Shown piece after piece: positions 8,320-24,762 of a stretch of 64,000 nucleotides of DNA. The DNA comes from Bryobacterales bacterium. GTDB taxonomy: Bacteria > Acidobacteriota > Terriglobia > Bryobacterales > Bryobacteraceae. Within the stretch, counting starts at the first letter, position 1; each line of letters begins with the position of its first letter. The notes beneath the pieces were generated by a model that was not told the DNA's origin, did no database searches, and saw only the letters and a program-made list of their open reading frames with translations. Where the stretch lies: positions 82,920 to 146,919 of the forward strand of contig CAVSUW010000008.1 in the NCBI GenBank assembly GCA_963731375.1, in the 5' to 3' direction. Position numbers and translations under genes: made by a program.

Positions 8320-10544
8320 AAGCCCTCGCGGCACTGGCCGGTGCGGCATTCACCGTCGCGGCCTGTTACGGATTGGGATCGCTGCTCGCCGCGCGGCTGG
8401 GAGCGCGCCTGCGGCGTGACGAAAAGTTCCCGCTGGCCTTCGTGCTGGGCGCCGCCGTGTTGCATCTGGCGATCTTCGCGGTCATGGCTCTGCACATTGC
8501 ATACCGGCCTGTACTGATCGCGCTGCTGGCCGCGTGCGTGGCGGCCGCCCTGGTCACGGGTGACTGGCGATTGCCTGCGGCGGAGGATGCCGAGCGCGAG
8601 AGGTCGCTGCCCTGCGCCATCCGCTACCTGTTCGGCGTCATCGCGGCCGCGTTCACCGTGCTCTATCTGTTCAACGCCTGGGCGCCGGAGATCAGTCCGG
8701 ATGGCTCCAGTTACCACCTGAGCCTGGTCGCGCGTTATTTGCGCGCTCACGGATTCGAGCCGGTACTGACCAACATCTACTCGACGCTGAGCGAGGGCGT
8801 CGACATGTTATTTGTGCCGGCCTTTGCCATTGGCAGACATTCGGCTGCCGCGTTGATGCATTTCGCGTTTCTCATCGCACTGGCGCTGGCGGTTTTGTCC
8901 TACGGCAGGCGGATCGGCAAACCGCTGGCCGGCGCGGCGGCCGCGCTGCTGGTGTATCTGAGCCCGATCGTTGGAATCGACGGAACCTCGGCATATATCG
9001 ACGTCGCCGTCGCCGCGATTGTGTTCTCGGTCTTTTACTGGATCCAGATTTGGGATAGCCAGCGCGAAGGGCGTATCCTCATCGCGATCGGTTGCTGGCG
9101 GGTTATTGCTATGCGGCGAAGTACACCGCGTTCGTCATGCTGTTCTACGCCGTGGGCTTTGTCACTTGGCGCACGCGAAGGATGGCGCCTGCCATGCTGG
9201 TAGTGGCATGCTCGCTGGTCATGGTCGCGCCGTGGATCGTCAAAGACTGGATTTATGTCGGGAACCCGGTGGCTCCCTTCGCCAACCAATATTTTCAGAA
9301 TCCCAACATTCACATTTCCTTCGAACGCAATTGGACCGCGTTCCTGCGCACCTACGGCTTGAAAATCTGTGGACCCTGCCGCTCGAAGTCACGATTCGCG
9401 GGGGGCCGACGGGGGGTCTGTTAGGCCCGGTCTTTCTGGCCGCTCCGCTGGCTCTGCTCGCGCTGCGGTCCCGCAACGGGCGCCGGCTGCTGGTGCCCTG
9501 CGCGCTGATTCTCGCCACCTATTTCGGCAATGTGGGGACACGCTTCCTCATCCCCGCCTGCCGTTTGTCGCGCTGGCGATGGCTCTCGCCCTGGAGCCAG
9601 CCGATGCCGCTGCTGATCCTGCTGGTCACGCTGCATGCGGCAGCTTCCTGGCCGTCGTTGATGCAGCGTTACACGCTAGCTTGGTCGCTGCGAGGAATCC
9701 CTTACAAAGCCGCCCTCAGAATCATTCCCGAGGATCGCTACCTCGCCGATTTCATCGAGTATCGCTGGGCCCGCATGATCGAAGACCACGTCCCGCCGGG
9801 GGCGCGCGTGCTGGTTCGCAGCGTGAGTCGCCAACCGCGTACACTTCGCGCGATGTTCTGATCGGTTACGAAGGAGCGTTCAACGAAGAAATGCAGGACC
9901 TGCTGGATGTCGGCTGGGATTCATTCATCGCAACCGCGCAAGCAGTGGATTTACTCGTTTCCCGAGCGCCGCGTGCGCCGGCTCCGTGTAGTTCAGACCG
10001 GAACGACCACAATTCCGGAAGATACAGTGGGATGTTCACGAGTTGAGGTTCTTCCACGCAGGCGTCGAATTGCCGCGCCTTCCCGAGTGGCGCTTGCAGG
10101 CCCATCCCAATCCGTGGGGCGTGCAAATGGCGTTCGACAATTCCGAAGCCACCCGCTGGAGAAGCTGGGAGACGCTGCGTCCGGGTATGTGCATCGAAGT
10201 GGACTTCGGCCGCGAGCAGCCGGTGGATCAGGTGCGCGTCGAACTGTCGGACCAGGATTGGACTGTTCGCATGCGCGTGGAGGCGATGGACGCGAACGGG
10301 CGTGTGGACGCCGCTGCCTGCTCGCGAAGAGCTGCGCCAGCAGCAATACGTGGGGTCGGTGCGCCGAGCCGCCGCATTTGAACTTCACGCGCACGGAGTG
10401 GACTACGTGCTGCTCAAGGATACCGATTTTGGCGCGAAGGACCTTGCAGACGATCCGGCGCGTTGGGGAATGACGAGATTGGTATATGCGTCGGGCGCCA
10501 GCCTTTATCGGGTAAACCCACCTGAGGTGAATCCACAGAGGTAA
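8316..10544 (+). CDS. large polytopic membrane protein with C-terminal F5/8 type C (discoidin)-like domain, frame-disrupted
   Basis: MKALAALAGAAFTVAACYG followed by more than 10 hydrophobic helices (fragments 8121-9203, 9092-9424, 8971-9861). C-terminal: AFDNSEATRWRSWETLRPGMCIEVDFGREQPVDQVRVE (10043-10381), tail 10302-10544. At least 4 frame switches. Confidence 0.6.
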
Positions 10545-10571
10545 ACCAGTGACGGCCGCTGGTTTCTGGGC

Positions 10572-11498
10572 GTGGACGGCGGCCAGTCCAGCACGGCGGC
10601 GCTGATCGGCGACGAATCCGGCAAGGTGGTGGGCGTGGGCCACGCGGGACCTTGCAATCACGTCAGCACCGCCGAAAGCCACGCGCGTTTCAGGGACGCC
10701 ATCGGCGGAGCGGTCAACGCCGCGTGCCAGGCCGCCGGGATTGACGGAAGCGCGTTTCGCCGCCGCCTGCCTGGGCTTGAGCGGCGGACCCGCACGACAA
10801 GGAAGCGCTGGTGCGCGAGATCGTTGTCGGCGGAACACTATCGCATCACCAACGACGCGGTGATCGCGCTCCTGGGCGCGACGGCGGGCGAACCCGGTGT
10901 GATCGCCATCGCGGGCACCGGCTCCATCGCCTACGGCCGCAACGCGGAAGGCCGCACCGCGCGCGCCGGCGGCTGGGGATATGTGTTCGGCGATGAAGGC
11001 GGCGCGTTCGACCTGGTGCGGCAGGCCGTCCGCGCCGCGTTGCGGAAGGAAGAAGGCTGGGGACACGCCACTGCGCTGCGCGAAGCGTTGCTCGAAGCCA
11101 CCGGCGCGTCCGATATGAACGACTTGCTGCATCGCTTCTACACGCCGGCTTATCCGCGCGCGCGAATTGCTTCCTACGCGCCGCTGGTGGATGAAGCCGC
11201 GCGCAACGGCGACGCCGCCGCCCGCGAGATTCTCCAAAATGCGGCCCAGGCGCTGGCAACCTATGCGGCCGCGGTGCGCCGACAGCTGTTTCATCGCGGC
11301 GAGCTGGCGCGGACTTCCTATATCGGCGGCGTCTTTCGCAGCGACATCCTGCGCGAGCGATTCGCGATGCTGGTGCAGCTCGAGAGCGACGCGCCGGTTC
11401 ATCCTCCGGCGATGGGCCCCGCCGCGGGCGCGCTGATCGAGGCTTACCGGCTGGCGGGACTGAAGGTTCTACCTTCGAATGCTCCGCCCGGCGTGTGA
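10572..11498 (+). CDS. BadF/BadG/BcrA/BcrD-type ATPase (N-acetylglucosamine kinase-like)
   Basis: LGVDGGQSSTAALIGDESGKVVGVGHAGPCN, VIAIAGTGSIAYG, AGGWGYVFGDEGGAF. A local compensated frame excursion near 10760-10830. The true start is probably a few codons upstream. Confidence 0.7.
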   Translation: MDGGQSSTAALIGDESGKVVGVGHAGPCNHVSTAESHARFRDAIGGAVNAACQAAGIDGSAFRRRLPGLERRTRTTRKRWCARSLSAEHYRITNDAVIALLGATAGEPGVIAIAGTGSIAYGRNAEGRTARAGGWGYVFGDEGGAFDLVRQAVRAALRKEEGWGHATALREALLEATGASDMNDLLHRFYTPAYPRARIASYAPLVDEAARNGDAAAREILQNAAQALATYAAAVRRQLFHRGELARTSYIGGVFRSDILRERFAMLVQLESDAPVHPPAMGPAAGALIEAYRLAGLKVLPSNAPPGV

Positions 11499-17033: not shown

Positions 17034-18318
17034 ATGTCTCTGGTGGCGCGCCTCGAAGCGTGCAAGGGAAAATTCGGCGCCGACGCCGCGCGCGAAGTGC
17101 TCGCGCTGCTGAAACGCATCGAGCGAACACGGTTTCGCGATCCACAAGAACTGATTCAACTCCACGAGACAGTGATGTTCCTGCGCGCCTACCCGCAAAG
17201 CGCTCGAAGTTTTGCGTCACGCGGATCGAATTCTGTTTTCATTCGGCGAACGCCTGCGCGGATTGCCTCGCGAAGACTTCGAATACTCCGACGTTTCGGG
17301 CATCGCCGGCACCGGCTTAACCACCAACTTCAGTTATCCATTCGCCAAGAGCCTCGCCGAGCGGCACGCCGGCGACGTCAGCATCGATTGGGAACAATAC
17401 CAGCATGCGGATCGCCTGGGTCCGATTCTCGCGCGCCTGATCCCGGAGTCGTTCGAGGACTGGGCCGTGGCCCCGCATCCCGACTGGCGGCGCTGGTACG
17501 AAAACGCGGGCGGCACTCTGCCGTGGCTGATCCGCGGCGTCACGCCCGAAGTGTACGACCTGCTGGAGTTGCCGATTCGCTGGGATTTGCGCGATTCACC
17601 CGCGTCCCGTTCGCGCGCGCGCATTCCGCGGAAGAAGATCTTCTATCACGACGGTCCGTTCCTGACCCGCAAAGACGTGTCCATCGAGGCCGAATTCGCA
17701 GCGCCGAAGATCGCCGTGCAGCGCTTGCCGCGGACCGAGGCGCAGCGAATGATCGACATCATCGTGGACGCCTCCGCCGTGCGCTATCGCGAGTTGTACG
17801 GATTCCTCTACCCGGACGCCGCGAACGTATTTCACGCCGACCTCGGCCGCGGCATGGACTTCTACTTCTTCGGCGTAGCCCGCAAATGGCGACTGCCGAA
17901 ACGCGACTATAGCTGCGGCATGTACTTCAAGAACGGCGTGCCGATCGGTTACGTCGAAGTGCTATGGCCCCGCGAGCCCAAGGGCGGACGCATGGAAGTG
18001 GGCTTCAATCTGTACTACACGTTTCGCCAGGGCGAGACGGCGTGGCTGTACGCGCGCTTGCTGAAGCTGTACCGCGAACGCTATCGCGTGACGTCGTTTT
18101 TGGTCGATCCCTATCAGTTGGGACACGAGAACGAAGAAGCCATCGAATCCGGCTCTTTCTGGTTCTATTACAAGCTAGGCTTCCGTCCGGAATCGCCCGA
18201 AGCGGCGCGCCTCGCCGAACGCGAACAGCAAAAGATTGCCTCGCAACCCGGCTATCGCACGCCTCCCGCGACATTGCGGAAACTGGCGGTGTCGCCGGTC
18301 GTATACGGATGCAGGTGA
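17034..18318 (+). CDS. conserved hypothetical protein with GNAT-like C-terminal fold, one frame switch
   Basis: Fragment 17034-~17215 joins 17212-18318. C-terminal: GVPIGYVEVL...VGFNLYYTFRQGE...AIESGSFWFYYKLGFRP resembles acyltransferase (GNAT) ends. Confidence 0.55.
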
Positions 18319-18339
18319 ATTGTAAGCTTCTTGACTAAT

Positions 18340-18357
18340 GTTCGCATATATGCGAAC
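18340..18357. promoter_or_regulatory. perfect 18-bp palindrome, candidate HigBA operator
   Basis: GTTCGCATATATGCGAAC equals its own reverse complement. It lies 8 nt upstream of the higB ATG and 3 nt downstream of a TTGACT hexamer (18331-18336). Confidence 0.5.
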
Positions 18358-18365
18358 GTTAATCG

Positions 18366-18734
18366 ATGCCTCTCACAGAGGTCGTCTTCTACTCGGAAGA
18401 CGGAAAGGCACCGGTCCGAGAGTGGCTGAAAACTCTTCCGGTGAAGGCACAGATAAAATGCCTTGCCTATCTGAGTCAATTGGAGAATCGCGGACACGAA
18501 CTGCGGAGGCCGATCGCCGATTCGCTGCGGGACGGTATTTACGAATTACGTCCGTCTTGTGCCGGCGTGCATTATCGAATCCTGTACTTCTTTGCGGGAA
18601 AGGACGTCGTGGTCGTATCTCACGGGATGATCAAAGAGGCGGCGGTACCTGCTGCGGACATCCAACGCGCAATTGCGCGGCGAAAGAAGTTCATGGCAAA
18701 TCCTGGCGCGCACTCCACGATAACGGAGCGATAG
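18366..18734 (+). CDS. higB: type II toxin, HigB/RelE superfamily (Gp49-like)
   Basis: Intact 122 aa. VREWLKTLPVKAQIKCLAYLSQLENRGHELRRPIADSLRDGIYELRP...YRILYFFAGKDVVVVSHGMIKE. Toxin-first order, followed 4 nt later by an HTH antitoxin. Confidence 0.8.
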   Translation: MPLTEVVFYSEDGKAPVREWLKTLPVKAQIKCLAYLSQLENRGHELRRPIADSLRDGIYELRPSCAGVHYRILYFFAGKDVVVVSHGMIKEAAVPAADIQRAIARRKKFMANPGAHSTITER

Positions 18735-18738
18735 CAAT

Positions 18739-19074
18739 ATGACCAAACGATTTCAGTCCGCGGCGCTGCAAGAGGTCTACCAGGAGATCGTGGGTCAGGA
18801 CGGTGCCAAGCAAGAGGTGTTCGAACAGGAACTGGTGAATGTCGAAGCGGCTCAGTTGCTGTATGACATGCGCACCAAGGCAGGACTGAGCCAGCGGGCG
18901 CTTGCGAAACGGGTCGGCACCACCGCCAGCGTCATTTGTCGGTTGGAGGACGCTGACTACCAGGGGCACACGCTCGCCATGTTGCACAGGATTGCGGCGG
19001 CTCTGGAACGGCGCCTGGAACTGCGCGCAGTGCCCCTTACTCCTCGGCGACCACGGAAGGCGCGCGCCCGATAA
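18739..19074 (+). CDS. higA: type II antitoxin, XRE/HigA-type HTH protein
   Basis: Intact 111 aa. HTH: LYDMRTKAGLSQRALAKRVGTTASVICRLED. Confidence 0.8.
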   Translation: MTKRFQSAALQEVYQEIVGQDGAKQEVFEQELVNVEAAQLLYDMRTKAGLSQRALAKRVGTTASVICRLEDADYQGHTLAMLHRIAAALERRLELRAVPLTPRRPRKARAR

Positions 19075-19882
19075 TCGCCAGCGCGTTCGTTGAATGTTCT
19101 TCGAACCCATACCGTTGAAACTGACGCCCGGCAAGCGCAGCAGGTGGATCCAGATACTCGTCGGCCAATAGCATCTGTTCCACGTAATTGTAGATAGCGT
19201 CAACATCCTCGGCGTCGTTGATGGATTGAAGCCAAACCGTTTGACCGTGAAATTGAAGCAAGACCACATTTGCAAGCGCACACGGCCCCAGACATCCTGA
19301 GACCGTCAAATGAAACCGGCGACGAATTCCGCGTTTCTTCCACTGAGTCTTGAACTCTTCGAGAGGCAGCGCCGGGAAACCTTTGTCTGTCCTGCCGCAG
19401 CAACAACCCTGGCAGACGAATAAGTGGCCGTCCAGAATGCGAATTCGCTTGGAGGCGCCGTCCGCGCGGATGTACTGTCGCATCGGACTCCGCTCGAACG
19501 GTGACAGGTCTGTTCTTCGCTCCAGGAGCTCCACCGGTTTGCCGTGCGGCGTGTGCCAGTAGGCGTCGGCCCAAGCCTCCTTGCGTTCGCGGAGGGCCGC
19601 GCTGTCCGTCAAGCCTTTTCCCGTGACGAGCCGTTCGAGTGCAGCCAGCCAATGGTGATAGTAGCGCGAGCCATCGTCAGGCTCGCCCCGGTTTGCCGCC
19701 ATTTTGAGCTCATTCGCGAGCGTGGCTGCCCATTCCGTCCAAGTGAAATGCCCCTGCCCTGACAACTGCACCGCCAGCGCGAACGCCTGCGCTTCCCAAG
19801 GTTCGGCGAATACCGGCCCCCCGGTGTCACATGGAATTCGGGGCAGTGCAGTCAGAAGGTCGTCCGCGTGGAGGCAGATCAT
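19037..19882 (-). CDS. nitrile hydratase accessory (activator) protein fused to a Cys-rich thioredoxin-like ferredoxin domain
   Basis: Intact 281 aa. N-terminal half: PVFAEPWEAQAFALAVQLSGQGHFTWTEWAATLANEL...YYHHWLAALERLV, as in NHase activator proteins. C-terminal half: HLFVCQGCCCGRTDKG...TVSGCLGPCALANVVLL. Confidence 0.7.
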   Translation of the reverse strand: MICLHADDLLTALPRIPCDTGGPVFAEPWEAQAFALAVQLSGQGHFTWTEWAATLANELKMAANRGEPDDGSRYYHHWLAALERLVTGKGLTDSAALRERKEAWADAYWHTPHGKPVELLERRTDLSPFERSPMRQYIRADGASKRIRILDGHLFVCQGCCCGRTDKGFPALPLEEFKTQWKKRGIRRRFHLTVSGCLGPCALANVVLLQFHGQTVWLQSINDAEDVDAIYNYVEQMLLADEYLDPPAALAGRQFQRYGFEEHSTNALAIIGRAPSVVAEE

Positions 19883-20538
19883 GCCGGCTCAAGGTAGTCA
19901 TCCCACATATCGATATAAACCGAATCCCTTGGCGATGCCTGTTCGCCCCACAATTCGCGAGCGGCAAAACGAACCGAATAGACGTGCTGCGGCTTCTCGC
20001 CCGATCCTGCGACGTTAGTGTCTGGGAAGATAAAGACACCGTGGTCGCGATCCACCGTGCCCACTTTTCCGCGCGCGTATCGAGGCAGCCGCGTGTGCCC
20101 AAGGGGATTGATATTGCGGCCGCGCACCGCCTGCCCGACCTTAAACATCGGCGCCACAACCACGTCCCTGCGCGACGGTGCGCCCTTGGCTACGAAGTCC
20201 GGCACCTGCTCCGCCTTCAGCAGCGGCACGGCCTTGGGCGAGCGCTGCGCCGGCTTGCCCTTCAGGATCTCCTCGGTGGTAACGAATCCGCCCTCCACCA
20301 GAAGTTCGCTGAACGCGACCACAAATCTTGCGTAATAGCTAAGACGCAGTTGCTCTTCAGGTGGAATCAACTCGACGTGATAACGATTGGACTTGCCGTT
20401 AAACTTGGGCCACGGCCGCATCGCGCGCCGCAGCGCAAAGATCCGCGATTCCCAGCGCGCGTGGAACACTGGCTCGTTTTTCTCGCGCTCAATCGGGCCC
20501 ATTCCCTGCATGCCGCCCATGTCGTGGATTCCGTTCAT
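19879..20538 (-). CDS. nthB: nitrile hydratase beta subunit
   Basis: [16 protein letters not shown]...[15 protein letters not shown]; C-terminal [10 protein letters not shown]. Internal Met at 20538 chosen; it overlaps the alpha-subunit stop (ATGA). Confidence 0.9.
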
Positions 20539-21245
20539 GCCCGTTCTCCCGCCTCCGCAAGCACGACCTTGGCCACGCCGATCATGGCATCGCGCGTAAC
20601 CAGTGCGGCAAGCGCTTCTTCGCTCAGCGTCTCGCTGCCCGCGGGGCGCTCCGGCAAAACCAGGTAGCGAACCTCGGCGGTGCTGTCCCAAACACGCACC
20701 TCAACATCTTCGGCAAGCTCGAGCCCAAACTCGCGCAATACACCACGCGGGTCTATGACCGAGCGCGACCGATAAGGCGCCGATTTGTACCACACAGGCG
20801 GCAGACCGAGCACTGGCCACGGATAGCAGGAACAGAGAGTACACACTACAAGGTTGTGGATGTGCGACGTATTCTCGAGGACCACCATGTCTTCGCCCTG
20901 GTCGCCGGTGTAACCCAATTCCGCGATTGCCGACGTGGCATTGGTCAACAGACGCTGCTTGTAAGCCGGATCGGTCCATGCCTTTGCAACTACGCGAGCG
21001 CCATTACGCGGGCCGATCTTGTGCTCGTACGTATCGACTAAGGCATCCAGAGCCGCCCGGTCAACCAACCCTTTGTCCACCAAGAGCGATTCGAGCGACT
21101 TGACTCGTAGAGCTGGGTCGGAAGGAACCACCTGATGGTTGTGATCGTGGTCTTGAATCTTAGAGACGTCTTGCGCCTTAGCGAGGTCTTGCGCCACTAC
21201 CGCCCCCGTCGTTGCCAGGAAGCCGCGTCGAGTCGAATCCATCAA
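20535..21245 (-). CDS. nthA: nitrile hydratase alpha subunit, cobalt type, with N-terminal twin-arginine signal-like extension
   Basis: Metal-binding claw [22 protein letters not shown] (Thr in VCTLCSC is the Co-type signature). About 35 extra N-terminal residues: [26 protein letters not shown]. Confidence 0.9.
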
Positions 21246-21282
21246 GTGCTCCTTCCCGTACCGTCTGGGTCAAGCCAATAAT

Positions 21283-22670
21283 CTACCATGGCTGATCACT
21301 CCCGGCGGCCACGAAAGGCGCGCGCCCGATAAGCCCCATCGCATCTTCCATCGCGGCCGCAGCGTGCAGCAGAAGGTCTTCTTGCCTGGCGGCGGCGATG
21401 ATTTGCAGACCGATGGGCAGCCCGCTCCGGCTGAAGCCGCACGGAATCGATATCGCCGGCAAGCCCAGTGCGTTCATGCCGCGCGTGAACCGCGTAGCGG
21501 CGGCGCGGACTTCTTCGGCCACTCCGCGAATTTCCAAGGTCGTTTGCCCGATCTTCGGCGCGGTGCATCGGCGTAGTGGGAGTGAAGATGCAGTCCACCT
21601 GCTTCAAACAGTTTGGCGAACTGGCGGCCGATGCGGCGGCGCGTGCGCTGCGCTTCGATATAGTCGATGGCGGGAATGGCTTTGCCCTGATCGAGCATCG
21701 CCAGCACGTCGGCGCCGAAGTCCGCGCGGCGATCGAGAAATGGCCGGAGCGCCGAGGCGGCTTCGACCAGCAGACACGTCGCCGCCGCGGAGCGCAGCGC
21801 TTCCATGTCCGGGACTTTGATTTCGACCACGCGTCCGCCGACGCCGGCAGCGGTATCGAACGCGGCGCGAACCGAAGCCTCCACTTCGGGATCCACATGC
21901 TCCATGAAAAAGTTCTCGGGCAAGCCAATGCGGAGTCCGGTCAGATCCGAATCTGCCGGCGGGACGTAATCGGTGGGATCGTCGACCATCGCCTGAAACG
22001 CGATCGCCGCGTCGCGGACCGTGCGCGTGAGCGGCCCCACATGATCCTGCGAAAAACCGAGCGGCAGCACGCCACTGACGTTGACTCGCCCAAAGGTCGG
22101 CTTCAGACCCACCACGCCGCAGAACGACAGCCGGTACGCGAATCGATCCGCCGGTATCGGTGCCGGTCGCAAACGGCACCATCCCCGCCGCCACCGCCGC
22201 AGCCGATCCGCCGCTCGACCCGCCGGGAATGCGCGTGAGATCCCACGGATTGTGGATCGCGCCGAAGTGCGGGTTATTGGACGTGATCCCGTACGCCAGT
22301 TCGTGCAGTCCGGTCTTGCCTACGAGACACCGCGCCGGCTTCGCGCAGCTTGGTGACGATGGCGGCATCGCGCTGCGGAACATAGTCCGCGAAGATCTTC
22401 GACCCGGCCGTCGTGCGGACGCCTTTGGTCCGCATCAGATCTTTGTGAGCGATGGGAATGCCATGCAGCGGACCGCGATCGATGCCGCTGGCCAGTTCCT
22501 CGTCGCGCTGCCGCCGCCTCGGCCAGCGCCGCCTCGCCGGTCACCGTGATGAAGGCGTTTAGTTTCGAATCCAGCCGCTCGATTTCGCGCAGCGACTGCG
22601 TCACCAACTCCCGCGACGACACCTTGCGCGCCCGCAGCGCCGCGGCCAGACCTTGAAGATCGTCCATCAC
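21283..22670 (-). CDS. amidase (amidase-signature family), frame-disrupted
   Basis: [66 protein letters not shown]. Spread over 22320-22670, 21604-22383, 21474-22172 and 21283-21537. About 5 frame switches. Confidence 0.85.
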
Positions 22671-23913: not shown

Positions 23914-23947
23914 CAGGATTATAGTGAAGACAGGACTATAGTGAAGG
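23914..23947 (+). repeat. tandem direct repeat (2 x 17 nt) carrying duplicated TATAGT boxes
   Basis: caggatTATAGTgaaga followed directly by caggacTATAGTgaagg. It sits just upstream of, and overlaps the RBS of, the ATG at 23953. Confidence 0.6.
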
Positions 23948-23952
23948 TAGCT

Positions 23953-24762
23953 ATGCGCACAGCAATTGGAATTTCCGGCTCGATCCTGATGTTGGCCGCC
24001 GCCGCGCTGGCCGCCGACAACAAGTACGATCTTTCGCAGGCGCAGATCGACGACATCATTCAAAAGTTCGCGGCCAAGGAGGCCCAGTTCTCCAAAGCGC
24101 GCGAAGTCTACACCTATCGCCAGACCGCGCGCATCCAGGAACTCGACGACAGCGGCGCCATCACCGGCCGCTGGGAAACCGTCTCCGACATCATATTCAG
24201 CCCCGAGGGTAAACGCACGGAACACGTGGTCCGCTCGCCGGTGCCCACGCTGCAGAACATCACGCTGACCCCGGAAGATCTGGAGGACATGCGCAGCGTC
24301 CAGCCCTTCGTCTTAACAACCCCGGACTTGCCTAAGTACCTGATCCGCTACCTGGGCCACCAGAATGTGGACGAGATCGGCTGCTACGTTTTCGCCGTGA
24401 AGCCCGTCAAAATCGAGGGCACCCAGCGCTACTTTTCGGGCGAAGTGTGGGTGGACGATCGGGATTTGCAGATCGTCAAGAGCTACGGGCGCGGCGTGGG
24501 CAACGCCAGCCGCAAGGGCGATAACCAGTTCCCCAAGTTTGAAACCTATCGCGAACAGATCGACGGGAAATACTGGTTCCCCACCTACACCGTCGCGAAT
24601 GACACGCTGCATTTCAAGAGCGGCGACCAGCGCATCCGCCAGACCATCCGCTACGAAGATTACAAGCAGTTTGGCGCGGAAACCAAGATCACCTTCGGCG
24701 ACGAAGCTAAAGGACGACCCCAAACCCGCTCCGCCCGCGCCTCCGAGCCCGGCGCCTCCTAA
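23953..24762 (+). CDS. secreted LolA-like / outer-membrane lipoprotein-sorting family protein (hypothetical)
   Basis: Signal peptide MRTAIGISGSILMLAAAALAA. GCYVFAVKPVKIEGTQRYFSGEVWVDDRDLQIVK, GKYWFPTYTV. ATG at 23953 (RBS GAAGG) preferred over the ORF-track GTG at 23941. Confidence 0.5.
   Translation: MRTAIGISGSILMLAAAALAADNKYDLSQAQIDDIIQKFAAKEAQFSKAREVYTYRQTARIQELDDSGAITGRWETVSDIIFSPEGKRTEHVVRSPVPTLQNITLTPEDLEDMRSVQPFVLTTPDLPKYLIRYLGHQNVDEIGCYVFAVKPVKIEGTQRYFSGEVWVDDRDLQIVKSYGRGVGNASRKGDNQFPKFETYREQIDGKYWFPTYTVANDTLHFKSGDQRIRQTIRYEDYKQFGAETKITFGDEAKGRPQTRSARASEPGAS

Follow-up and report, generated by a model that had tools for sequence, protein, structure and literature searches.

A cobalt-type nitrile hydratase operon with a Tat-type signal on its alpha subunit and a ferredoxin-like domain fused to its accessory protein in a Bryobacterales genome

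The closest described relative of the locus reported here is the cobalt-type nitrile hydratase (Co-NHase) of Pseudomonas putida NRRL-18668, which has P14K as its activator and whose structure (3QXE) is the strongest solved-structure match for both alpha and beta. The P. putida enzyme is described as cytoplasmic, its alpha subunit has no signal peptide, and a beta-like accessory gene lies directly downstream, as it does here; P14K itself is a small single-domain protein. Metalloenzymes that cross the membrane as Tat hitch-hikers, such as E. coli hydrogenase-2 (HybO/HybC) and DmsAB, receive their cofactor in the cytoplasm before export with the help of a dedicated chaperone. To our knowledge the known Tat substrates include neither an NHase nor any other cobalt enzyme of the non-corrin kind. 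A different outcome is seen in NarG, a cytoplasmic enzyme bound by NarJ, which has a vestigial Tat motif that is degenerate and without a peptidase site.

Here we analyse a 64,000-nucleotide stretch (the window) from a Bryobacterales (Acidobacteriota) genome, a soil Acidobacterium. Our overall reading, to which we assign a probability of about 0.55, is that it carries a Co-NHase operon of the P. putida type, with a Tat signal on the alpha subunit that would direct export of the enzyme and, fused to the accessory protein, a six-cysteine domain that would serve cobalt delivery or redox handling. The sequence features that an earlier note had described at this locus were all found in place. We found no published description of a Tat-type signal on an NHase alpha subunit or of an accessory-ferredoxin fusion.

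The operon and its surroundings

The enzyme is a P. putida NRRL-18668-type Co-NHase, encoded on the minus strand in a classical amidase-nthA-nthB-accessory operon, and alpha, beta and accessory proteins alike pass their NCBIfam equivalog cut-offs. The nthA gene (20535-21242) encodes an alpha subunit precursor of 235 aa, counted from the ATG at 21242 (the listed reading frame opens one codon earlier, at TTG 21245). It scores 306.4 bits against TIGR01323 (cut-off 249.85), matches PF02979 at E 2.8e-89, and is nearest among solved structures to the P. putida alpha chain (3qxe_A, E 2.6e-94). The Co-type claw VCTLCSC previously read in this protein is present at 20826-20846 (minus strand), aligned to the 3qxe_A active site and followed by Y, giving the same VCTLCSCY as in P. 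putida. The beta subunit gene nthB (19879-20538, minus strand; 219 aa) scores 241.5 against TIGR03888 (cut-off 152.2) and matches 3qxe_B at E 5.7e-61; its ATGA overlap with nthA and its lack of a signal were both borne out. The beta catalytic residues do not vary: R52, E56, Y68, H147, R149 and Y215, which P. putida shares, as well as Y69, are the same in all of 73 relatives.

The first gene of the operon encodes an amidase-signature amidase (21283-22670, minus strand), which has no signal peptide. A signal-less amidase in an NHase operon is compatible with a single-compartment cytoplasmic pathway. The gene is indeed split into six frame pieces, with 1-bp indels at about 22509, 22330/22323, 22128, 21601, 21565 and 21303, so that six tblastn HSPs in alternating frames were needed to cover the orthologue from the closest MAG (L081), which is intact at 455 aa and belongs to PF01425. 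These breaks are probably sequencing noise and do not mark a truly degraded gene, because frame breaks affect 11 of 20 syntenic genes; housekeeping genes elsewhere in the window (PFK, transketolase subunits) are disrupted likewise.

The earlier note had raised the possibility that the HigBA-NHase block as a whole was recently acquired, but comparison with the closest MAG lends this no support. The operon has the same neighbourhood there, at about 90% nucleotide identity, and the only extra segment is the ~0.77-kb HigBA insert (18311-19084, plus strand), across which the window does not align although it does on both flanks. This insert holds a 32-bp palindrome (18333-18364), a higB-like toxin gene (18366-18734, plus strand; PF05973, 72.2 bits) and an HTH antitoxin gene (18739-19074, plus strand; HTH_31, 29.1 bits). 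At its right-hand junction, 57 bp (19028-19084, minus strand) duplicate the 3' end of the amidase gene, with blastn identities of 89% to L081 9808-9864 and 87% to window 21298-21342; this copy now gives the accessory gene its last ~14 codons and stop. The slightly lower GC noted for the block holds for the insert (0.574) but not clearly for the NHase genes: their GC is 0.599, the mean of the window is 0.619, and 18% of 2.2-kb windows are at or below their value. The block does contain a frame break, since a 1-bp insertion near 19867 gives the accessory protein ~8 N-terminal residues unlike those of homologues, which begin MTTL(S/N)RHDLPP.

The N-terminal signal of the alpha subunit

Preceding an otherwise complete alpha subunit is a Tat-type signal peptide (residues 1-23; 21174-21242, minus strand) made up of TRRGFL, a short A/T/G/V core and a predicted cleavage site, AKA|QD. 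The pattern T-R-R-x-F-L ... A-x-A|Q was found in 116 of the 120 closest alpha homologues (75-96% identity), with A at -3 in 113/115 sequences, A at -1 in 105/115 and H, K or R at -2 in 74/115. Compared with the loci L001 and L002 the signal has solely synonymous changes, the RR codons vary synonymously in L012, L007 and L003, and changes in the core are confined to A, T, G and V. The predicted mature N-terminus is His-rich (DHDHNHQ, 21132-21152, minus strand), a stretch kept in relatives with and without the signal. Signal-less relatives open at this very stretch, with MPAHDHDHHHDHQ (L060, L061, L066) or MSEHDHHHGHQ (L051), and the alpha subunit of P. putida is similarly His-rich (THDHHHDGYQ); their starts coincide with the predicted cleavage point. 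Judged from these sequence comparisons, the signal is translated, under selection and modular. The N-terminal extension that had been singled out earlier is a conserved Tat-type signal, and not the product of a mis-called start.

In the window the signal belongs to a short type: only 12 uncharged residues separate RR from an Asp. This short class, with 11-12 such residues, makes up 83 of the 116 signal-bearing homologues; E. coli Tat signals have 15-21. The window signal scores below cut-off against both Tat models (TIGR01409, 13.1 vs 16.7; PF10518, 13.3 vs 22.7). Of eight N-termini tested, one passed PF10518 and five passed TIGR01409 (19.2-25.4 bits vs 16.7), all five belonging to the long class, of which six were tested. 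Canonical Tat signals were also seen in more distant 50%-identity clusters (P0414, P0434, P0469). Longer-signal relatives pass the Tat model and the window signal does not, which makes Tat export likely across the family but no more than plausible for the window enzyme itself, a less certain case because of its short-class signal. In a rough NJ tree signal-bearing and signal-less forms are interleaved, and the signals of L017, L018 and L031 look degenerate, suggesting that the signal is dispensable in some lineages. Sec-signal amidases, putative periplasmic partners of the enzyme, adjoin signal-bearing nthA genes in L070 and L057.

Neither beta nor the accessory protein carries a signal, so hitch-hiking would be the sole route for beta export. 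The arrangement resembles that of HybO/HybC and DmsAB, in which an RR signal is found on one subunit and none on the partner, but the NHase signal is far shorter and export is here predicted from sequence. The earlier suggestion of a periplasmic, Tat-exported NHase with hitch-hiking beta thus retains the conserved signal and the signal-less beta in its favour, and is weakened by the sub-threshold scores and the signal-less amidase.

The accessory protein and its cysteine-rich domain

The accessory gene (19037-19882, minus strand) encodes a two-domain protein of 281 aa. Its N-terminal domain (19508-19882), already recognised as NHase activator-like, is of the P14K/NhlE type and homologous to the beta N-terminal domain (TIGR03889, 91.2 vs 46 over residues 25-96; PF21006, E 2.5e-10). 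Unlike P14K, it is joined to a second domain (19109-19483) containing six invariant cysteines, C157 and C160-162 (19397-19414) and C197 and C201 (19280-19294), in the motif VCQGCCCG...GCLGPC. The fusion is a real gene and not an assembly indel, being in frame in independent MAGs (L001, L002, L012, L023, L027, L059, L064) and found in more than 100 protein clusters; the best 120 accessory homologues listed are all of two-domain length (239-300 aa).

The proposed likeness of this C-terminal half to thioredoxin-like [2Fe-2S] ferredoxins is supported at the level of fold, by profile matches to 7t2r_B and 5abr_A and by Foldseek matches to 1m2a, 5abr, 9jn8 and HydB (probability 0.97-1.0, target-normalised TM 0.56-0.66, with modest E values of 5e-3 to 2e-2). 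These structures include Aquifex aeolicus Fd4 (1M2A) and Azotobacter vinelandii FeSI (5ABR), and the likeness extends to the N-terminal domains of HydB, HydC and NuoE. Across homologues the signature C-x2-3-CCC-x34-C-x3-C is invariant, and four of the cysteines occupy the C...C-x34-C-x3-C ligand positions of this NuoE/HydC-type group. The accessory domain differs from these ferredoxins in its two added invariant cysteines, which produce the CCC run, in an extra N-terminal beta-hairpin, and in scoring far below the family HMM cut-offs, none of which is reached (NF041613, 24.6 vs 195; DUF1636, 14.7 vs 31.6). DUF1636 (PF07845), which is also found in cobalamin gene clusters, gives a weak match over the domain; membership was rejected at 13-15 bits against 31.6, with 16 of 113 members matching at E<1.

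The genomic context of the domain is cobalt insertion, and not electron-transfer complexes. Among 80 loci with the ferredoxin-like domain, it is fused to the accessory protein in 37 and split from it in 21, and cbtA adjoins it in 15. As a separate gene it follows the accessory gene, as in L086 (nthA-nthB-acc-Fd-cbtB-cbtA), or lies within B12 operons, as in L138 (cobO-Fd-cobQ-cobD). It is also fused to the cobalt-transporter subunit CbtB (P0306, P0340) and to the cobaltochelatase CobN (L157 and L158; PF02514, 1364 and 1257 bits), while in L070 the accessory protein is fused to a NicO-like protein. This range of stand-alone, CbtB-fused, CobN-fused and B12-operon forms points to a cobalt-insertion-associated module. 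Most signal-bearing loci lack the domain, which is therefore not required for the exported form.

Alternative readings and a proposed route

Several other explanations were weighed against this reading. That the signal is an untranslated leader, with the true start near the His-rich stretch where signal-less relatives begin, is very improbable: codons 2-40 contain no ATG and no GTG or TTG preceded by a Shine-Dalgarno sequence, whereas a strong one (GGGAAGGAG, 21249-21257, minus strand) lies 6 nt upstream of the ATG at 21242; the peptide is moreover conserved at the amino-acid level through synonymous codon changes, and nearly all of the closest homologues were called with it. A doubtful but more serious alternative is that the short RR peptide has lost its Tat-targeting function, the enzyme being cytoplasmic and the peptide either tolerated or used as a docking site for the accessory chaperone. 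Such a role would recall NarG/NarJ, where an RR-bearing N-terminal peptide likewise sits on the cofactor-containing subunit and the maturation chaperone gene adjoins. The short core and low model scores, the cytoplasmic operon amidase, the close relatives with degenerate or lost signals, and a QDLA-x-AQ segment conserved beyond a typical c-region all fit this idea. However, unlike NarG, the window alpha keeps RR, F-L and A-x-A intact, as does the majority short class with its A-x-A|Q, and a docking peptide would need none of these; the short signals are also clearly derived from full-length signals that pass the Tat model, and their cores vary freely among small hydrophobic residues, as functional signals do.

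It is improbable, too, that the enzyme is a thiocyanate hydrolase-like protein or another hydratase, although this would account for a periplasmic location. The beta pocket is unusual at G48, N51, R71 and F72: relative to the P. putida and P. thermophila enzymes these are the substitutions L48G, F51N, H71R and W72F, at positions that vary across the clade. The alpha subunit shares its fold and claw with the thiocyanate hydrolase gamma subunit by homology, but fails the gamma model (TIGR03887, 177.6 vs 291.45), and the locus has no third subunit of the thiocyanate hydrolase alpha type; both NHase equivalog cut-offs are passed, alignment to the P. putida alpha is very strong, and the classical amidase partner is present. 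As for the cysteine-rich domain, a tentative alternative is that it holds no Fe-S cluster and serves as a direct Co(II)- or Zn(II)-binding metallochaperone site. Its CCC run, invariant in 80/80 loci, would be analogous to the CxCC of COG0523 proteins, two extra invariant cysteines stand beside the ligand positions, and the CobN, CbtB, CbtA and B12 associations all concern cobalt. Against this, the fold match is to Fe-S ferredoxins, and four cysteines fall on the [2Fe-2S] ligand positions of HydB, HydC and FeSI in the alignment, with a spacing of 34 residues that never varies; the two roles are, in addition, compatible with each other.

Returning to the reading of an exported Co-NHase, we propose that the accessory protein, through its beta-like N-terminal domain, would capture apo-alpha in the cytoplasm; the subunit would then acquire cobalt and its cysteine oxidations and swap into the alpha2beta2 enzyme. 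Tat would carry the folded holoenzyme out with signal-less beta as hitch-hiker, and removal of the signal would leave a His-rich N-terminus like that of cytoplasmic enzymes. Exogenous nitriles might then be hydrated in the periplasm; the amide would re-enter the cytoplasm to reach the amidase, or would meet an exported amidase where some relatives have one. The cobalt-handling link of the ferredoxin-like domain, through CobN, CbtB and B12 operons, lies outside what the earlier note could have seen. Elsewhere the domain accompanies the insertion of cobalt into vitamin B12, and its role is most likely in cobalt delivery, or in redox handling during metal insertion.

The nitrile hydratase operon and its alpha-subunit extension

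The operon runs on the minus strand and comprises an amidase (22670 to 21283, from the ORF listing and family searches), nthA (21242 to 20535), nthB (20538 to 19879, overlapping nthA by ATGA) and a 281-aa accessory gene (19882 to 19037), which directly follows nthB and overlaps its stop codon. Both subunits exceeded the cut-offs of the nitrile hydratase (NHase) models, with TIGR01323 at 306.4 bits against 249.85 for alpha (PF02979, E 2.8e-89) and TIGR03888 at 241.5 against 152.2 for beta, and residues 25-96 of the accessory protein match TIGR03889 (91.2 against 46). Among solved structures the P. putida Co-type NHase, 3qxe, lies closest (E 2.6e-94 for alpha and 5.7e-61 for beta), and the nearest public sequence comes from a Bryobacterales MAG (96% alpha identity), which places the window in Acidobacteriota. 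Residues 133-140 of alpha form the Co-type claw VCTLCSCY, including the Thr and Tyr of the pattern V-C-(T/S)-L-C-S-C-(Y/T). Beta residues R52, E56, Y68, Y69, H147, R149 and Y215 (P. putida numbering) show no variation across the window and 73 relatives; the window has unusual residues at pocket positions 48, 51, 71 and 72, namely G, N, R and F. Thiocyanate hydrolase was rejected as the identity of the enzyme, since the gamma model TIGR03887 reached 177.6, below its cut-off of 291.45, and the operon encodes alpha and beta only rather than three subunits. By its sequence the enzyme belongs to the Co-type NHase family, and it comes with two previously unreported additions, a conserved Tat-type signal on alpha and a fusion of the accessory protein to a ferredoxin-like domain.

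We were not able to find any promoter or terminator exceeding shuffle expectation in a scan of 18.2-23.0 kb. Several alpha homologues (P0002, P0005, P0016 and others) carry a precomputed Pfam match to PF27793.1.

The alpha extension of about 35 residues with a Tat-type signal, proposed in the earlier note, is real. A Shine-Dalgarno sequence, GGGAAGGAG, lies 6 nt upstream of the nthA ATG (21242), no plausible internal start was found in the nthA sequence downstream of that codon, and the 24 signal codons differ from those of two relatives' loci (L001 and L002) by two synonymous and zero non-synonymous changes; together these rule out translation from an internal start. In more distant relatives both Arg codons vary synonymously and the core swaps among small hydrophobic residues. 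When the closest database alpha homologues were surveyed for the extension (75-96% identity), 116 of 120 carried M-x-(S/T)-T-R-R-x-F-L, followed by an A/G/T/V-rich core, A-x-A|Q and a His-rich stretch. The window's own motif, S-T-R-R-G-F-L-A, fits the S/T-R-R-x-F-L-K pattern except for K to A, and some relatives have TRRGMLK or TRRSFLK. Its predicted peptidase site, A-K-A|Q, fits the A-x-A rule of signal peptidase I with a basic residue in the c-region; across 115 relatives A occupies position -3 in 113 and position -1 in 105, and H, K or R stands at -2 in 74, counts made with a regular expression that favours A-x-A.

Relatives lacking the signal (among them L049, L051, L055, L060, L061, L066, L067, L072, L075 and L080) start exactly at the His-rich stretch, as does the cytoplasmic P. 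putida alpha (THDHHHDGYQ), and the extension is therefore a module added ahead of an alpha subunit that is itself complete. The RR motif occurs in 45 of 80 loci taken from species-representative genomes, mainly in Acidobacteriota with some Verrucomicrobiota and Steroidobacteraceae, and three protein clusters only ~46-57% identical to the query (P0414, P0434 and P0469) also have canonical Tat signals. Forms with and without the signal are interleaved in a rough NJ tree. Some alpha N-termini of close relatives look decayed (L017, L018, L031 and L035), with RS for RR, the RR lost or no in-frame start codon; either certain lineages can do without the signal or are losing it, or the assemblies are at fault here.

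An accessory protein with a ferredoxin-like domain

Characterised accessory proteins of the P14K/NhlE type are small, single-domain proteins of about 100-150 aa. At 281 aa and with a second domain, the window's accessory protein is not of that size; unfused forms in relatives have 114-135 aa, and the best 120 accessory homologues listed are all of two-domain length (239-300 aa). An assembly indel joining two separate genes is ruled out by these 120 homologues and by the fusion being in frame in seven independent MAG loci. The activator-ferredoxin fusion put forward earlier is thus genuine, and a split form also exists, with accessory and ferredoxin-like domain as two overlapping genes. A correlation between Tat signal and ferredoxin fusion was sought and none was found; the two features are independent.

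The C-terminal domain has six invariant cysteines (C157, C160, C161, C162, C197 and C201), and every one of the 80 domain-carrying loci has the signature C-x2-3-CCC-x34-C-x3-C. The family profile matches 7t2r_B, a hydrogenase B subunit, in its N-terminal thioredoxin-like [2Fe-2S] domain, and 5abr_A, the Azotobacter FeSI protein. At the cluster-ligand positions of 7t2r_B, 8a6t_C and 5abr_A, C157/C162 align to the C-x-C pair and C197/C201 to C-x3-C, and these four cysteines are invariant in the 80 loci. An AlphaFold (AF2) model of the accessory protein averages a pLDDT of 78, and within its C-terminal domain (residues 140-250) the block means are 79-97. A Foldseek search with it returned 1m2a (Aquifex Fd4), 5abr (FeSI), 9jn8 (a Rhodobacter thioredoxin-like ferredoxin) and HydB N-domains at probabilities of 0.97-1.0, with target-normalised TM-scores of 0.56-0.66 against small stand-alone ferredoxins. 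The domain search suggested in the earlier note thus points, by profile and by structure comparison, to a [2Fe-2S]-type fold, and the modelled C-terminal domain is predicted to be thioredoxin-like. None of the curated family models reached its cut-off on this domain (NF041613, 24.6 against 195; NF041612, E 0.003), and PF01257 gave no match. The domain may hold an Fe-S cluster, bind cobalt through its extra cysteines, or both.

A search with the domain alone returned 390 proteins, many of them stand-alone (136-170 aa) and two fused to CbtB. The stand-alone form occurs in the order nthA-nthB-accessory (114-134 aa)-ferredoxin-like gene, continued in locus L086 by cbtB-cbtA. Among the 80 loci carrying the domain, NHase genes adjoin it in 59, and in 58 of these the accessory gene was also detected, fused to the domain in 37 and separate from it in 21; CbtA is adjacent in 15 of the 80. 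No NHase lies nearby in the remaining 21 loci. One of these, L138, has the order cobO-Fd-cobQ-cobD, and in another, L141, the domain's neighbours are a PduO-type adenosyltransferase and a BtuF-like binding protein. In two more of the 21 the domain forms the N-terminus of CobN, in L157 (4977-9374; PF02514, 1364 bits) and in L158 (4626-9341; 1257 bits), the latter from the cultured strain Acidobacteriaceae bacterium dw_441. Such copies probably explain why small NHase-linked proteins bear the JGI label 'cobaltochelatase CobN'. A literature search on CobN, ferredoxin and DUF1636 yielded nothing relevant.

In L070 (7345-8532) the accessory protein is fused to a NicO-like permease (PF03824, 26.3 bits, just below the cut-off of 27.7), and in L038, L079, L029 and L057 it is fused or directly adjacent to a NicO/NiCoT-like permease, fusion being shown for L070. 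This gives the activator a further fusion partner related to cobalt. In 18 of the 80 loci examined first, the NHase cassette is followed by CbtAB or NicO-like genes. The genomic contexts of the ferredoxin-like domain (NHase accessory, CbtAB, CobN and B12 genes) mark it as a cobalt-insertion-associated module common to Co-NHase maturation and cobaltochelatase.

Frame breaks and the history of the locus

In L081, the closest MAG contig, the genes follow each other as in the window (ACAD, amidase, nthA, nthB, accessory gene and a 425-aa gene), with aligned blocks at 87-92% nucleotide identity. The amidase shows five frame changes against an intact 455-aa orthologue, which bears out the earlier description of it as frame-broken. 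A true pseudogene is unlikely to be the cause: 11 of the 20 genes syntenic with L081 between 10500 and 31100 are broken alike, among them PFK, both transketolase subunits, enoyl-CoA hydratase and an amidohydrolase, and sequencing or assembly noise is therefore the more likely source. Isolated 1-bp insertions relative to L081 are many and scattered through the window, unevenly distributed; nthA, nthB, ACAD and a few other genes are intact. An insertion of this kind near 19867 also changes the N-terminal residues of the accessory protein, which in relatives begins MTTL(S/N)RHDLPP from an ATG within the 3' end of nthB.

Convergent to the NHase operon lie a HigB/Gp49-like toxin gene (18366-18734; PF05973, 72.2 against 23.9) and, after a 4-nt gap, an HTH (XRE) antitoxin gene (18739-19074; PF13560, 29.1 against 27), the toxin gene coming first. 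It had been suggested that the whole HigBA-NHase block, with its slightly lower GC, was acquired recently. The synteny in L081 speaks against this, and so does the GC content, which at 0.599 for the NHase genes is unremarkable beside the window mean of 0.619; what holds is the lower GC of the HigBA insert itself (0.574), and L081 lacks only the segment 18311-19084, which contains HigBA. HigBA alone looks recently inserted.

On either side of the NHase cassette lies a copy of the amidase 3' end, forming a 57-bp direct repeat (19028-19084 and 21298-21342). The copy at 19028-19084 lies at the HigBA junction and provides the accessory gene with its final ~14 codons and its stop, replacing the native C-terminus; this repeat suggests that HigBA either brought along part of another amidase locus or entered through recombination at this sequence. 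An imperfect palindrome of 32 bp (87.5%) at 18333-18364, immediately upstream of the higB start, may be a toxin-antitoxin operator. Two flanking plus-strand genes are also conserved and syntenic in L081, one (23941-24762) encoding a 273-aa protein whose N-terminus is Sec-like and the other (17034-18318) a protein of ~425 aa; Pfam gave no significant match for either.

Possible export, a proposed role in cobalt insertion, and implications

A Tat signal typically needs a core of ~13 or more hydrophobic or uncharged residues (the TATFIND-type rule), and E. coli Tat signals have 15-21 uncharged residues. By the number of uncharged residues after RR, 116 relatives fall into a long class (13-20; n=33) and a short class (11-12; n=83). 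The window belongs to the short class, with 12 uncharged residues followed by Asp, and misses the ~13-residue rule. Eight N-termini were scored against the curated Tat models TIGR01409 (cut-off 16.7) and PF10518 (cut-off 22.7). With TIGR01409, five of six long-class peptides passed at 19.2-25.4 bits, the sixth scoring 15.9; short-class relatives (15.3) and the window (13.1) all remained under the cut-off. With PF10518 a single peptide passed, that of a relative, and the window scored 13.3; PF10518 was nevertheless the top-scoring family for seven of the eight, the window's included. The alpha signals as a family are clearly derived from genuine Tat signals, and the window carries a weak, shortened form that may still direct export.

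Support for a periplasmic pathway comes from elsewhere in the family: amidase-signature amidases with Sec-type signals lie beside Tat-signal nthA genes in L070 (4151-5761, minus strand) and L057 (about 9688-10668, minus strand), which hints that some lineages possess a complete periplasmic route from nitrile to acid. The amidase of the window operon lacks a signal, which counts against such a pathway at this locus, and other Tat substrates, sought within the window for comparison, were none of them convincing. To our knowledge, every NHase studied so far, industrial enzymes included, has been treated as cytoplasmic. Literature searches on NHase together with Tat, periplasm, signal peptide, Fe-S or Acidobacteria found neither a native exported NHase nor an Fe-S accessory. 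The earlier proposal of a Tat-exported periplasmic enzyme is backed by the conserved Tat-type signal and by the long-class relatives that pass TIGR01409, and weakened at the window itself by scores under both cut-offs and an amidase without a signal; overall, the sequence observation is confirmed and its interpretation partly supported.

We tentatively propose, with a probability of roughly 0.3, that soil Acidobacteriota and some Verrucomicrobiota and Proteobacteria export fully assembled Co-NHase through Tat to the periplasm, the enzyme being matured by a hitherto unrecognised six-Cys ferredoxin-like cobalt-insertion factor that also serves the CobN cobaltochelatase of B12 synthesis. If so, it would be the first NHase, and the first non-corrin cobalt enzyme, known outside the cytoplasm. 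Co-NHase maturation is reported not to need a COG0523 chaperone (PMC11672702), and the Cys-rich ferredoxin-like module, genetically tied to the NHase activator, CbtAB and CobN, is a candidate for a common cobalt-handling step. A large environmental clade of NHases with Tat signals would add a new class of Tat hitch-hiker substrate, would open a natural way to NHase biocatalysts that are secreted or periplasmic, and would shift the presumed site of nitrile turnover in soil bacteria.
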